Below, piece after piece: positions 56,800 to 64,000 of a stretch of 64,000 nucleotides of DNA; positions within the stretch are counted from its first letter, which is position 1, and every line of letters starts with the position of its first letter. Made by a program: the position numbers and the translations under genes. Under the pieces are notes generated by a model that was given only the letters and a program-made list of their open reading frames with translations, did not search any database and was not told the DNA's origin. Source of the stretch: Thermoanaerobaculia bacterium (GTDB taxonomy: Bacteria; Acidobacteriota; Thermoanaerobaculia; UBA5066); the NCBI GenBank assembly GCA_038245905.1, contig JBBRRY010000006.1, positions 32,001-96,000 of the forward strand. Direction: 5' to 3'.

Positions 56800-59553
<2,754 letters not shown>

Positions 59554-59686
59554 GCGGGCACACCCCCCAATCGTGGATACCGGACGATAGCCCTCTCTTC
59601 CGGCCCGTGGCGAGGGTTCCGGTTGACCCTTGTAAAAAAGCGGGCGTAGCATATAGGGGGTCTGGCCTTGTAGACCAAGAGGAGTC

Positions 59687-60253
59687 ATGTCCCGGAACTT
59701 CGACGAGATTCAATCCGACGACGAGCGGCAGAGGCAGCGTTCCCGGTTCGCGCCGGCCCCGCTGCCCGTCCCGGCTCGACCGGTCTGGAACTGGGAAGAG
59801 CTCAATGCGAAGTTCCGCCCGCGTCTCATCGCGGCCGGCGTCATCCGTTTCGGCCTCAGCCAGGACGAGTGCGAGGACGCCGCGCAGAACGTCTTCTTGA
59901 AGGTGCTCGCGATGAACCCGCGTGTGCGCGACCCCAAGGCCTATCTCAGGGCCGCCTTCCTGAATCAGTGCTCGAACCTCATCGAGGCGCGTGAACGCCG
60001 CCGGGGACGCGAGTTCGAGATGACCGATCAGCTCGCCGCGACGCTCGCCGATCCCGCGGCCGCGCGAGTGCAGACGGTCTCGGCGGTGACGAGCGCGTTC
60101 CGTCAGGTCGACCCGAAGTGCCGCGAAGTCATCAAGTCGTACTGCGTCGAAGACATGACGCTGGCCGAGACCGCCAACCGCAGCGGCTACTCGCCGAAAA
60201 CCGTCTGGAAGCGCATCCAGGAGTGCCTGAAACGGATGCGCGCATGCCTCTAG
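59687..60253 (+). CDS. ECF-type sigma factor
   Basis: RBS GAGGAG; region 2 ([23 protein letters not shown]) and region 4 (TLAETA...[15 protein letters not shown]). Confidence 0.8.
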
Positions 60254-61671
60254 TGCTCGTCACGGCGGAGCACCCCTCCGAGACCGATCTCATGAACCTC
60301 GCGACGGGCCGCGAGCCGGGCGACGCGATGGCCTCGGCGAAAAAGCACATTGACGAAGGCTGTCGCCTCTGCACGCGCCGCCTCGGCGAACTCCAGCATC
60401 TCGTCTCTGCCGTGAAGGAAGAGCACGCGTTCGACGCGATCCTCGAGAGCGAGAGCGAGATCGTCCCCGATCTGCCGCGCCCGGCCATGGGTCGCACGCT
60501 TCCCTTCGTGAACGCGAAGGCGCGGACCTCGATAGAAGACATTTATCATCTCTCGCAGACGGCCGAGAAACCCGCCGAGTTCATCGTCGACGCCGCACGC
60601 GCGGGGGCCGACGAGCTTGCCGCCGCGCTTCGCGCGCTGGATGGCAAGCCGTATCGCGGCTTCGCGCTGCTGTATGCGGCACAGAAGGCGTTCTCGCTCG
60701 TCCCCGAGGATCCGGTCCGCGCAAGGCTGGTTGCCGATCTCCTTCTTGCCGAAGCTGCGACACTTCCCCCGGCGACTCCGGATTCCCGCGCCTCGACCCC
60801 CGCACCTCGCCAGGCCGCCCAGGCAGAAGCGACGCTCCTGAAGGCGTACACGTTCCTTCAGTCCAGTGAGCCCCTCCTTGCGCGTGAGGCCATCGCCCCC
60901 GCACGCGAGTTCTTCCGTGAATCAGGCGATCTCGGCTTCGGCGCAGCTCTATGCGACTACTACGAAGGCCAGGCCGCGAGCTATTCGCGTGACTACGCAT
61001 CCGCCGAGCGGCTTCTGAAGCGCGCCCTCGCAACCTTCTCGGAATTCGGTCAGGATCATCTTCGCGCACGAGCCGAGGTCGCACTCGGAACGCTTCTTCT
61101 CCACCGCGGCCAGAATGTCCGAGCACTTCAATATCTCGAGAGAGCCTCGGGTTGCTTCGACCCGGAGCAGGACGCGCAGTTCCTCGTCCCCACGCTGAAC
61201 AACCGCGCTCAGTGCCTCATGCGCCTAGAGAGGTTTGACGAAGCGCGAGCCGCGCTGGCGAAGTCCTTGAGCCTGTGCCTGCGTTTCGGCTTCCGCTCGC
61301 ATCTCCTGTTCGTACGGAACGGCCTTGCCGTGCTAGACGTGCATCGCGGTCAGTTCAAGCGCGCGCTGGGCGCCTTCGGTCAGATCGCTAAGGAAGTCAC
61401 CTCGCCGATAGACGTCGCGTTCGCGCGCCTCTACGTCGCCGAGTGCCACGCTCGCCTCGGGAGCTACGGTCCGATGGCGGCGGAGATCGAAACCCTGCGC
61501 CGCGAACGGCAGGCGAATCCCTTCGCTCCGTCGCCCGCCTTCGGCGAGCTCTTTGTCTGCCTCGACCAGGGCACGATCGACGCCGACCTCATCGCGCACG
61601 TCCGCGAATACCTGCAGGAAGAAGAAAGCGGCGTGAAGCGTGCGTATCGAGCTCTGCGCCTCGTCGGCTAG
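60244..61671 (+). CDS. ZAS (zf-HC2-like) domain + TPR-repeat cytoplasmic protein, putative anti-sigma/peptide receptor
   Basis: H...HIDEGCRLC at the N-terminus; TPR-like repeats; overlaps the sigma stop; no TM. Confidence 0.75.
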   Translation: MPLVLVTAEHPSETDLMNLATGREPGDAMASAKKHIDEGCRLCTRRLGELQHLVSAVKEEHAFDAILESESEIVPDLPRPAMGRTLPFVNAKARTSIEDIYHLSQTAEKPAEFIVDAARAGADELAAALRALDGKPYRGFALLYAAQKAFSLVPEDPVRARLVADLLLAEAATLPPATPDSRASTPAPRQAAQAEATLLKAYTFLQSSEPLLAREAIAPAREFFRESGDLGFGAALCDYYEGQAASYSRDYASAERLLKRALATFSEFGQDHLRARAEVALGTLLLHRGQNVRALQYLERASGCFDPEQDAQFLVPTLNNRAQCLMRLERFDEARAALAKSLSLCLRFGFRSHLLFVRNGLAVLDVHRGQFKRALGAFGQIAKEVTSPIDVAFARLYVAECHARLGSYGPMAAEIETLRRERQANPFAPSPAFGELFVCLDQGTIDADLIAHVREYLQEEESGVKRAYRALRLVG

Positions 61672-61700
61672 ACAAAATCCTCACTCTGCCTCGTTTCGAC

Positions 61701-61730
61701 TCGGCCGCCTTCGGGCGGCCGAAGTTTTTT
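61701..61730 (+). terminator. Rho-independent terminator
   Basis: TCGGCCGCC-TTCG-GGCGGCCGA hairpin followed by AGTTTTTT. Confidence 0.8.
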
Positions 61731-61825
61731 CGGGCGTCGGGGGTCAAAACGACCGGTGTCCCCTGTCTAAGTAGATGAAGGGCAGGAGTAGTGGACACCT
61801 GTCCGGCTGCGGGGTAGGAGGACGT

Positions 61826-61978
61826 ATGGACTTTCTTTTCGCATTTTTCAATGTGTTTTCGGGTTTTCTGATGGATGACGCCAGCGTGGTCGGATACCAC
61901 CGGGGCGCGTCGATCGCCTCGACGCCCATCGGGATCGCCTCGACGCCCATCGGAATCGCCTCGACGCCTATCGGCTGA
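61826..61978 (+). CDS. 50-aa peptide precursor ending in (IASTPIG)x3
   Basis: AGGAGG RBS; MDFLFAFFNVFSGFLMDDASVVGYHRGAS-IASTPIG-IASTPIG-IASTPIG*; only synonymous differences among the repeats. Confidence 0.75.
   Translation: MDFLFAFFNVFSGFLMDDASVVGYHRGASIASTPIGIASTPIGIASTPIG
61913..61975 (+). repeat. 21-bp tandem repeat x3 (ATCGCCTCGACGCCYATCGGV)
   Basis: Copies start at 61913, 61934 and 61955; followed immediately by TGA. Confidence 0.95.
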
Positions 61979-62055
61979 GACGACCCGGATCGGTACGGAT
62001 TTTACAAACGCCGCGCGGCGCCTAGGGGTTTGTTGCGCCCGAAAGGAGTATCGAC

Positions 62056-62466
62056 GTGCTGAGAAGTCACCTGCCGAATGAAGAGCCGGCTGGCGACGTC
62101 ACGCTGTCGATGATGCTCCATGCGCCGCACCCGGTCGTCGTCGCGAGTGCGAGCGAACCTGGGAAAGTCCTCCTCCACCTCGAGATCCGCAACAAGACGC
62201 TTCAAGCATGGGAGGGGTCCACGGAAGCGGGTCCTCTCCTGGAGCTGGTCCTCCTCGACGCAGAGGGCCACGAGCGCTCCCGGCAGACGCGCCAGTGCCG
62301 GATGCTCGCTTATCCCACCCGCCTGGAGCCCGGGCGGGGATTCAACCTCCCCCTCTTCTTCAACCTGCCCGGGCTCTCCACTTCTGGCGAGGACTTCCGC
62401 GTCGAGGTCCGCCTCGTGCCCGGCCGCGAAGTCCTCACCGGCCACCTCCGCGTCGAACCGCGCTGA
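62056..62466 (+). CDS. Hypothetical beta-rich (Ig-like, possibly BsuPI-like) protein
   Basis: RBS AAAGGAG before GTG; LEIRN...LLDAEG...LEPG pattern. Confidence 0.55.
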   Translation: MLRSHLPNEEPAGDVTLSMMLHAPHPVVVASASEPGKVLLHLEIRNKTLQAWEGSTEAGPLLELVLLDAEGHERSRQTRQCRMLAYPTRLEPGRGFNLPLFFNLPGLSTSGEDFRVEVRLVPGREVLTGHLRVEPR

Positions 62467-62482
62467 CGCGCGGGACTGCGGC

Positions 62483-63886
62483 TCAGCTACGGGGCGAGTC
62501 CACTCGACGCAACGGCCGATAGGCCCGCTTCACGCCGTTCTCTTCGTCCTGCATGTATCCGCGGACGTGAGCAATCAGGTCCGCGTCGATCGTGCCCTGA
62601 TCGAGCGACATGAAGAGTTCGCCGAAGGCCGGCGAAGAAGCGAAGCGGTTCGTCTGCCGCTCGCGGCGCAAATCCTCAATCTCAGAGGCCATGGATTCGT
62701 AGGCGCTGAGGCGGCCGTGGCACTCCGCAATGTAGAGGCGTGAGAAGAGGATTTCCTTCTTCGAAGCGAGAGGGCTTGCCTCACGGACGATTTCTGCGAA
62801 AGCGCGGAGCGCGCGGCGGTACTCCCCGCAGCGGAAGTTCAGCTCGGCAAGACCCGTGCGAACGAAGAAGAGATGCGACGAATGATTGTGCCGGCGGCCG
62901 AAACTAAGGGCCTTCGCAAACGTCGTACGCGCTTCGTCAAGACGCCCGAGCCGCATGAGAAAGGTCGCCCAGTTGTTGAGGAGCATTGTCGTCCGCTGGC
63001 TCCCCGTGCCCGATTCAGATTCAAACGCGGGCAGGGCGGCATCAAAGCATTTGAGCGCCCGTTCAAACTGGCCCTCCAGACCGAAGAGAGTTCCGAGCGA
63101 AGCGTTCGCGCGCCCAGCCAGATACTCCTGTCCGAACTCAACGAAGACGGCGAGCGAGCGCTTCAGGAGTCTTTGTGCCCCAGCGTAATCTTTCTCAAAT
63201 GTCGCAGCGGTACCCTCGTAGTAATCACAGAGCGCCGCACCGAAGCCAAGATCCCCGGATGCGGCGAAGAATCCTCGCGCCGGTTTGACGGCTTCTCGTG
63301 CAGCCTTCGCTTCTCCCTTCTGAAGCAGGGCTTGGGATTCGAGGAGAGCGGCCTCGGCCTGCACGGCCTGCCGGGGGGCCGGGGTCGAAATGCGGTACTT
63401 ACGATCCGCAGGCGGGAGAGATTCAGCCTCGTCGAAGAGCAGGCTCGCGAGCGAGAGCGCCTTGTTCGGATCCTCGGCGACGAGCGTGCCGGACTTCTGA
63501 GCCGAATATAGCAGCGCGAAGCCGCGATACGGCTTGCCGTCCAGCGCACGAAGGGCGGCGGCGAGCTCGTCGGCTCCCGCGCGGGCGGCCCGAACGATTC
63601 GTTCGGCCGGCTCTTCTGCTTCGCTCGACACATCGACGAGATCGCTGACGAACTGGAAACATCGCGCGTCCCTGCCGTGATCATTCTGAGATTCTTCCGA
63701 CCAGAGCGCCTCCGCCAGTTTCTTCAGGGAACTGTCGAGGCGCCGCGTCCCCGCTAGGCTCGCCCGGCACGCGGCACATTCTGCGAGATGCTTCCGTGCC
63801 GCGAGCGCTTCCGGCTCCCGAAGATCGCGCGCCGCAATCCGGAGCAGCGCTCCTTCGTCAAGGTGTCGCTCAGCTACCGTCTTCAT
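62483..63886 (-). CDS. Second ZAS + TPR-repeat protein, paralog of 60244..61671
   Basis: H...HLAECAAC; shares AARAGADELAAALRALDGKPYRGFALLY and LDQGTIDADLIAHVR blocks; ATG at 63886 overlaps an upstream stop (ATGA). Confidence 0.8.
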   Translation of the reverse strand: MKTVAERHLDEGALLRIAARDLREPEALAARKHLAECAACRASLAGTRRLDSSLKKLAEALWSEESQNDHGRDARCFQFVSDLVDVSSEAEEPAERIVRAARAGADELAAALRALDGKPYRGFALLYSAQKSGTLVAEDPNKALSLASLLFDEAESLPPADRKYRISTPAPRQAVQAEAALLESQALLQKGEAKAAREAVKPARGFFAASGDLGFGAALCDYYEGTAATFEKDYAGAQRLLKRSLAVFVEFGQEYLAGRANASLGTLFGLEGQFERALKCFDAALPAFESESGTGSQRTTMLLNNWATFLMRLGRLDEARTTFAKALSFGRRHNHSSHLFFVRTGLAELNFRCGEYRRALRAFAEIVREASPLASKKEILFSRLYIAECHGRLSAYESMASEIEDLRRERQTNRFASSPAFGELFMSLDQGTIDADLIAHVRGYMQDEENGVKRAYRPLRRVDSPRS

Positions 63887-64000
63887 TTCTTCCCTTCGAG
63901 GCTCAGCCGCAGCTTCCTGAGGCATGCGTTGAACCGCTTCCAGGCCTGCTTTTCACTGAATCCGAACTCGGCCGCGGCCTCGCCGAAGCCCTTCCCCTCC
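63883..64000 (-). CDS. ECF sigma factor, C-terminal region 4 (partial; continues beyond window)
   Basis: Manual translation EGKGFGEAAAEFGFSEKQAWKRFNACLRKLRLSLEGKK*, paralogous to the C-terminus of 59687..60253. Confidence 0.7.
   Translation of the reverse strand, partial: EGKGFGEAAAEFGFSEKQAWKRFNACLRKLRLSLEGKK

Follow-up and report, generated by a model that had tools for sequence, protein, structure and literature searches.

A candidate peptide-signalling circuit joining an ECF sigma factor, a soluble ZAS-TPR protein and a short proline-ended peptide in Thermoanaerobaculia

Pairs of zinc anti-sigma (ZAS) proteins and sigma factors of the extracytoplasmic function (ECF) type are known from RsrA-SigR, ChrR-sigmaE and RsiW-SigW. 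The locus studied here raises the question of what such a pair responds to when the anti-sigma protein carries tetratricopeptide repeats (TPRs) and a gene for a small repeat peptide follows. It lies at the end of a 64-kb stretch of DNA, hereafter the window, from an uncultured member of the Thermoanaerobaculia (Acidobacteriota). A preliminary description, made from the sequence, had suggested that the TPR domain binds a processed form of the peptide and thereby controls sigma release. The answer proposed in this study is a circuit for peptide signalling: the ZAS-TPR protein would hold the ECF sigma factor until the downstream-encoded, Pro-Ile-ended peptide binds its groove; taken as a whole, this statement is given slightly less than an even chance. 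The locus contains the following features.

59623..59652, plus strand: sigma-70-like promoter of the sigma/ZAS-TPR operon (TTGACC-18-TAGCAT), a pattern also found upstream in relatives
59687..60253, plus strand: ECF sigma factor 1, 188 aa, matching TIGR02937
60244..61671, plus strand: ZAS-TPR protein 1, 475 aa, with an N-terminal zinc anti-sigma motif, a linker and seven TPR-type helix pairs
61701..61730, plus strand: intrinsic terminator-like hairpin between the operon and the peptide gene, also present in relatives
61741..61768, plus strand: predicted ECF promoter GGGTCAAA-N14-TGTCT upstream of the peptide gene, from the motif matrix
61826..61978, plus strand: propeptide gene, 50 aa, with a hydrophobic/acidic leader, a spacer and three 7-residue repeats ending P-I-G-stop
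62056..62466, plus strand: conserved 136-aa immunoglobulin (Ig)-like beta-sandwich protein without a signal peptide, probably co-transcribed with the peptide
62483..63886, minus strand: ZAS-TPR protein 2, 467 aa, without a peptide of its own
63883..64000, minus strand: ECF sigma factor 2, 3' half (sigma-4 part), the gene being split by an IS21-type element past the window end

Most parts of the locus proved to be as first described. Sigma factor 1 passes the NCBIfam sigma70-ECF model TIGR02937 (48.8 bits versus a cut-off of 42.9), and the gene of ZAS-TPR protein 1, with its ATG at 60244, overlaps the end of the sigma gene. Protein 1 scores above the cut-offs of Pfam TPR_12, TPR_1 and TPR_2, and because its most hydrophobic 19-residue window scores 0.94, it is taken to have no membrane helix. 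The terminator is formed by a 9-bp stem and a T run. The 50-aa open reading frame (ORF) behind it starts 154 bp past the TPR gene in the window (142–270 bp in relatives), has a GGAGG ribosome site and encodes (IASTPIG)x3, the copies of which differ at third codon positions only. On the minus strand, the 467-aa paralogue with its HxxxCxxC motif is coupled through ATGA to a second ECF sigma gene. The claimed pair of convergent paralogous modules is present in arrangement, but its members differ in kind: a peptide gene goes with the first alone, and in the second the sigma gene is broken in this genome and the TPR core is nearer to the receptors of another peptide. The 136-aa gene (62056–62466) and the ECF-type promoter (61741–61768) had been overlooked. 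Five sigma/ZAS-TPR modules are encoded in the source genome, three of them followed by a small ORF ending P-I/L-G(G).

The evidence for a functional unit comes from homologous loci in relatives, numbered L001 onward and recorded as Thermoanaerobaculia/Acidobacteriota. A sigma gene lies upstream of 106 of the 107 homologous TPR genes with enough sequence. The 181 loci collected gave 140 distinct TPR 3' ends, 122 of which had at least 330 bases downstream. An automatic peptide rule (ribosome site, 12–75 aa, ending in P-[IVLATM]-x1-3) fired at 93 of these 122 ends, against 52 among 4159 further long ORFs in the genome, and an ECF promoter-like motif followed 84 versus 69; both occurred together at 79 ends and at only two of the other ORFs, both of them the family's own. 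When one false-positive call (L070, minus strand) was dropped and four convergent loci with the peptide on the opposite strand were added, a peptide gene was present at 96 of the 122 ends. The other 26 consist of four loci with a promoter and a variant peptide, one frameshifted duplicate and 21 second-type receptors, which were sorted by eye on position or sigma type. Because the loci are related, these counts show conservation and are not independent trials. The 95 family peptides are 17–56 aa long, and the residue following the last proline is Ile in 81 and Val in 10. Two to four repeats are carried by 43 of them. The repeat period is 7 in 53 of 64. Codon differences between repeats are mostly silent (180 versus 31 replacing, in 38 genes), which indicates that selection acts on the peptide.

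The same association was found beyond this family. With the window protein as query, matches were obtained in 29 of 301 genomes from the class and fell into two families; one unpublished genome is counted in this tally and carries none of the conclusions. The sister family was matched in 33 of 81 genomes; 29 loci were examined, and at 25 of the 26 with a usable 3' end an ORF ending P-[IV]-P-x0-3 was present (background 2 of 4097), by a rule devised after the loci had been viewed. The 26th locus has four 7-residue repeats with an apparent frameshift. Five sister-family peptides are 75–82 aa long with a basic-hydrophobic (Sec-type) start, four have 19 aa, and the remaining ones are leaderless with 7–11 aa. 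A third family, matched by its profile in 30 of 41 genomes, has a small ORF with a Sec-like start (hand-made rule) at 17 of 28 loci versus 128 of 4125 background ORFs; most of these end in Pro-rich motifs, three of them in PIG. Adjacent small ORFs, whose lack at homologous loci had been named beforehand as a refuting finding, were thus recovered in all three families, in the third by the looser test. One receptor family appears from these sequences to go with peptides of three kinds, bearing a signal, a short leader or no leader, all with an end centred on Pro; the part that stays constant is about seven residues long. Some receptors of the third family are accompanied by a tandem pair of propeptide genes, and a single propeptide is shared by two convergent receptors (L220, L263, L226). 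A phylum-wide sample gave matches in 17 of 401 genomes; those outside the class (3 of about 360 genomes) looked by eye like TPR-CHAT fragments and were set aside.

The predicted promoters connect the sigma factors with the peptide genes. When the 3.8-Mb genome was scanned with a matrix built from 80 related sites, no more than two scored above 17 bits, each of them upstream of a peptide gene. The TGTC form of the promoter follows 57 of 67 receptors whose sigma factor is of the FLN/FLH/FLE type in region 2, and FFN-type sigmas go with the GGTTGAAA/CGTCT form. The sigmas of the sister family are of the FH type, and CACT is found upstream of its peptides. For the second-type sigmas (FH/FY), a divergent GGGTCAA/CACTC site was found in 5 of 10 loci with enough sequence, four of these sites preceding secreted-type proteins; the source genome has exactly two such sites, each adjoining a second-type sigma. 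These patterns suggest which promoter each sigma type would use. A sigma-70-like pattern precedes 24 of 42 related sigma genes, some of the misses being due to short contigs, and no ECF-type site that would point to autoregulation was found upstream of the sigma gene. The GGTCAA element reads on the opposite strand as TTGACC, the sigma-70 -35 element of the module 1 sigma operon.

Several further observations concern transcription of the locus. A second copy of the ECF promoter lies 320–390 bases after the first in ten loci (L039, L041, L043, L053, L092, L095, L102, L171, L172, L178), with no clear ORF behind it, and could possibly serve a small RNA or be a landing site for cargo genes. The 5' leaders of the peptide genes, both of the L002 type and in the sister family (L182–L210), comprise 60–90 structured bases with a recurring AGGCGG...GAGCGCTC...CCGCC common to the two families. 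A palindrome in the leader RNA was not convincing (64 of 111 leaders versus 45% of shuffles). Contigs of relatives from two soil metatranscriptome runs of one study (5–8% of words) cover parts of the locus, one spanning 61741–62114; as they give no strand, start or level, they support no conclusion. A further sigma of a related type lies in two pieces at contig ends (G000 C12 86014–87193 and C22 1–325) and is perhaps broken or split by the assembly.

The receptor protein was analyzed by profile and structure comparison, with residue numbers counted from base 60250, i.e. two less than in the full 475-aa protein. Its motif, H-x24-H-x4-C-x2-C, is one residue longer than the usual HxxxCxxC. For protein 2, zf-HC2 matched at E 0.014, below the cut-off, and the ChrR model at E 0.03. 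The model of protein 1 (mean predicted local distance difference test score, pLDDT, 86) has three N-terminal helices (11–66), a loose linker and seven helix pairs that form a TPR superhelix. Its best structural matches are peptide-bound LGN (Z 24.3), Rap (Z 22.7, 305 residues, root-mean-square deviation 4.5) and NprR (20.2), and Foldseek likewise ranks eukaryotic LGN ahead of Rap. In sequence profile searches, RapJ and RapF were found at E 8e-9 to 5e-8, behind generic TPRs, and no match to a CHAT domain was obtained. The modelled fold fits a generic peptide-binding TPR protein, not specifically an RRNPP receptor, and since identity to Rap is only 8–13% and LGN scores higher, common descent with RRNPP is not shown. 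The likeness to RRNPP receptors that had been claimed for these proteins hence holds for the logic of the circuit but not for the ranking of folds. Residues Q145, R274, N318, R356 and E398 are nearly invariant and located on predicted inner helices. The LNN motif, said to be kept in a TPR helix, is preserved at its second Asn (106 of 112) but not at its first (47 of 112).

The pairing of ZAS domain and sigma factor can be followed through losses. The ZAS motif is present in 82 of 102 intact sigma-TPR pairs, 79 of which have an intact sigma region 4 by eye. In 18 pairs it is cleanly absent, and all 18 adjoin a sigma that lacks region 4 and keeps region 2; two pairs are frameshifted. This joint loss agrees with a ZAS-sigma partnership, in which the ZAS domain would bind zinc and sequester the sigma factor, although a single junction deletion could also explain it. 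At the eighteen loci (L006, L010–L015, L057, L063, L064, L115, L118–L120, L123, L124, L126, L127), a well-conserved protein with sigma-2 only is coupled to a TPR protein that has no ZAS but keeps the end of the third helix; the promoter and the peptide are also there. In the intermediates L009, L114 and L147, the ZAS motif is present and the sigma-4 region is shortened. A separate sigma-4-only partner was not found with one query in five genomes, all 11 matches having frames of at least 190 aa, and the promoter in the sigma-2-only loci may be driven by the sigma of another module.

Receptors and peptides were also compared between strains. In the pairs L006/L115 and L104/L007, the sigma-2 DNA is 99–100% and the Ig-like gene 97–98% identical; their TPR core segments are 52–77% alike and their peptides different. 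In a tree of cores, receptors with the same type of peptide cluster together whether or not their backbone bears a ZAS domain. With the backbone allowed for, the peptide unit is correlated with the residues at predicted groove positions, with a partial rho of 0.37 in 28 window-like loci and of 0.31 in all 75 loci (0/999 permutations each), and the nearest neighbour with the more similar peptide was found by groove in 37 cases and by backbone in 13, with 25 ties. The co-variation of peptide and groove, suggested earlier as a check, is thus seen at the protein level but not in a DNA-level test. TPR core and peptide would be exchanged between strains as a cassette, giving pherotypes.

The second modules, which have no peptide gene of their own, differ from the first in their cores. 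Proteins 1 and 2 are 55% identical, and the core of protein 2 is 82% identical to receptors adjoining GPIS-type peptides as against 55% to protein 1. Among 12 second modules with a known partner peptide, three of which are close kin, the nearest first-type core belonged to another peptide type in nine, was tied in two and was of the same type in one; the reverse arrangement occurs in L109 and L110. The simplest reading is that second modules listen to other strains, and drift after duplication is possible. The variable secreted-type proteins behind the divergent promoters are likely to be their output. Sigma 2 is interrupted 135 bases past the window end by a single-copy IS21-type element of 2334 bp (contig C6 96136–98469, window 64136–66469; L003) with IstA/IstB-like ORFs and a 5-bp target duplication, so that module 2 is probably dead in the source genome; the intact form of the sigma is present in the relatives L055, L108 and L109.

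Some second-type receptors carry several TPR blocks behind one ZAS domain, three in L074 227–3941 (1214 aa) and two in L001 1142–3370 (742 aa). Several of the secreted-type proteins preceded by divergent GGGTCAA/CACTC promoters are small and Cys-rich (contig C6 98951–100010; L001 4019–4470; L087; L109; L175). An inversion between the two TPR genes was also considered; the arms are only 75–82% alike, which suffices for gene conversion, and no switch was shown.

The 136-aa gene downstream of the peptide is conserved among relatives, and its product is modelled as all-beta. A relation to BsuPI intracellular proteinase inhibitors is a weak lead: an atlas score of 0.92 with 194 shared features stands beside a best E of 0.083 against Pfam PF12690 (BsuPI), in 3 of 17 family members, and Foldseek placed 3isy at rank 24 with a TM-score of 0.45, amid many generic sandwiches. 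On the other side of the locus, divergent and upstream of sigma 1, the minus-strand gene at 56800–59553 is, as judged from its sequence, presumably that of pyruvate phosphate dikinase.

The circuit would operate as follows. The ZAS-TPR protein would keep the ECF sigma inactive, and binding of a short peptide ending in Pro-Ile to the TPR groove would free it. Once free, the sigma would act on the GGGTCAA/TGTC promoter and express both the peptide gene and the Ig-like gene, in a positive feedback loop. The propeptide would be exported or get as far as the periplasm, and after trimming to roughly seven residues it would re-enter through a peptide importer; Opp-type, OPT and PTR2 importers are encoded in the source genome. 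The loop would report on neighbours of the same peptide type. Second modules would borrow TPR cores, mostly of other pherotypes, their sigma driving the divergent operon of secreted proteins, and would form a non-self listening branch, inactivated in the source genome by the insertion element. The sequence itself shows the gene order, the coupling, the conservation of the peptide, the promoter motifs, the mosaic cores and the insertion; zinc binding, sigma sequestration, promoter use, the activating sign and the binding, export, processing and import of the peptide are inferred. That the peptide is the ligand of the TPR receptor is considered probable, and a role between cells is somewhat favoured. 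Peptide export is plausible by analogy with the Sec-type relatives and with leaderless peptides of Firmicutes, as these appear in the available text of PMC10518010.

A number of points weigh against this circuit. Sigma 1 has no predicted targets in the genome other than the peptide and Ig-like genes, which leaves the output of the loop unclear where no second module is near. Acidobacteriota hosts have two membranes, and the window peptide shows no evident export route, since it starts with acidic and aromatic residues, has no Lys or Arg among the first 20 and is only moderately hydrophobic (1.43). The peptide rules were devised after inspection of the loci. As for co-variation, the groove positions were picked from helix periodicity and not from coordinates, kin loci are not independent, and in the second clade the groove correlation failed to reach significance (0.20, 137/999, n=14). 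The DNA-level partial correlation between TPR core and peptide core was negative as a test (0.08, 331/2000, 18 loci), with differing repeat numbers blurring the peptide alignment. Because core and peptide are neighbours, block transfer alone could yield co-variation. Finally, there are mismatches: the core of L103 is of the window type but its peptide is GVGPIS, and the peptide common to L111 and L120 goes with different cores.

The proposed circuit shares features with several known systems. According to the portions of PMC10075063 available, RRNPP(A) systems are recognised by a propeptide of 10–100 aa within −60 to 400 bp of a TPR receptor of about 250–500 aa, by a Sec signal (basic then hydrophobic) or SHP/PptAB type in the propeptide, by an N-terminal helix-turn-helix or Rap three-helix output, and by a host among the Firmicutes or their mobile elements. 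The 50-aa propeptide and 475-aa receptor of the window, 154 bp apart, lie within these limits of size and adjacency. The window peptide, however, begins acidic/aromatic, with Sec-like starts only in distant relatives by the hand-made rule, and the receptor has a ZAS motif at its N terminus and an acidobacterial host. In common with Rap-Phr, NprR-NprX, PlcR-PapR, Rgg-SHP and AimR-AimP, as far as the available parts of PMC10075063 and PMC9765709 describe them, the system has a predicted cytoplasmic TPR protein of 250–500 aa beside a propeptide gene for 10–100 aa, a putative C-terminal active core, internal repeats, strain-specific alleles and extra receptors without a peptide. Its output is, in contrast, a predicted zinc anti-sigma domain coupled to an ECF sigma instead of a helix-turn-helix, a phosphatase bundle or an antiterminator. 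The sister family resembles the leaderless RopB-SIP clan in its ultra-small ORFs with a strong ribosome site and peptides of 7–11 aa beside a TPR receptor; unlike RopB, a helix-turn-helix regulator of Firmicutes, it has Pro-rich cores, and leaderless, short-leader and Sec-type forms occur together within one receptor family (PMC10518010, available text).

With ZAS anti-sigmas, as presented in the accessible text of PMC7826278 and PMC8103513, the receptors share an N-terminal His...HxxxCxxC in a gene translationally coupled to an ECF sigma; here the motif is of the His-x23-26-HxxxCxxC type in N-terminal helices, and the gene directly follows and is coupled to the sigma gene (106/107). Different from such pairs are the sensor, a TPR superhelix of 380 aa, and the predicted target of the sigma, which is the peptide gene and not its own operon. 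DdvA-DdvS of Myxococcus xanthus also combines ZAS and TPR repeats in one anti-sigma protein, but DdvA is a membrane-spanning protein whose CHAT protease lies in the periplasm (PMC11506125, in the text available); the window protein shows neither feature and is encoded next to a peptide gene. A peptide-gated soluble anti-sigma is not listed in the available text of the ECF classification reviews (PMC7826278, PMC8103513), supplementary group tables aside. The preliminary description had not recognised the sigma/ZAS-TPR/peptide architecture as described, and a search of the full-text literature likewise found no account of it, though supplementary ECF group tables could already record such a context; nor did that search find a paper joining Thermoanaerobaculia, sigma factor and peptide. 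The three-part system is real and conserved, is apparently undescribed, and is RRNPP-like in how it would work on an ECF chassis while failing RRNPP membership.

Other explanations of the same parts were weighed. The peptide could be the receptor ligand and act only intracellularly, forming a bistable switch or reporting on the state of secretion or the envelope by accumulating in the cytoplasm when export or proteolysis fails. Such a role would suit a window peptide without a Sec-type start, the 15 sister-family peptides of just 7–11 aa and an Ig-like protein with a weak protease-inhibitor lead encoded downstream. It is nevertheless unlikely, because Sec-type signals occur in the sister and third families, alleles are swapped among near-identical strains, and second receptors with the cores of other strains would have no ligand; leaderless peptides of 8 aa, moreover, act between cells in Firmicutes (PMC10518010, as far as its text was available). 

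Alternatively, the peptide might simply be something made under the control of the sigma, such as an antimicrobial or a precursor of a ribosomally synthesised and post-translationally modified peptide (RiPP), with the TPR domain sensing something else and co-variation reflecting linkage. The C-terminal Pro motif is kept across three families regardless of the leader, the peptide linkage holds even on the opposite strand (4/4 loci), and no recurring modifying enzyme or exporter was found beside 29 listed loci. These findings make an output-only peptide quite unlikely, in spite of the negative DNA-level test, the mismatched loci and a weak similarity of the TPR, well short of the cut-off at E 1e-5 to 1e-8, to HaaT and FxSxx, which are TPR models of RiPP clusters.

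Detection of a foreign protein motif from phage or competitor, with the peptide as a self-made mimic that amplifies the alarm, is suggested by the defence island that DdvA controls as a ZAS and TPR-CHAT anti-sigma (PMC11506125, in its available part), by the hypervariable cores and by the two or three TPR blocks that some second receptors carry (742 and 1214 aa); as no defence genes are found among the predicted promoter targets and cores cluster with their own peptides, it is improbable. A circuit of the same parts with reversed sign, in which the peptide would tighten the anti-sigma grip and the feedback would be negative, much as the receptor of arbitrium peptides is turned off by them, is just as improbable: the sign cannot be read from sequence and RRNPP receptors commonly have inhibitory peptides, but activation would better suit second modules that turn on secreted products in response to a foreign peptide.

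The circuit in which peptide binding releases the sigma factor is thus the reading preferred here. In its widest form, it would amount to an independently evolved peptide quorum sensing in the double-membrane cell of Thermoanaerobaculia, acting via a cytoplasmic anti-sigma, with swappable pherotype cassettes, signals ranging within one receptor family from Sec propeptides to leaderless ORFs of seven residues, and eavesdropping modules with up to three foreign TPR cores in tandem that switch on secreted products near other strains; this extended picture is tentative and, on balance, doubtful. With sigma, receptor, promoter and dozens of natural peptide/receptor alleles defined, testing in a laboratory host with synthetic 7-mers is feasible, and the family is a possible source of orthogonal peptide-inducible switches. 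If the peptide is the ligand, the system adds a further mode of sigma-factor control. Cytoplasmic TPR peptide receptors have been described from Firmicutes and their mobile elements, so far as the available text of PMC10075063 and PMC9765709 goes; if the circuit is true, peptide communication would extend to an abundant and mostly uncultured phylum of the soil.

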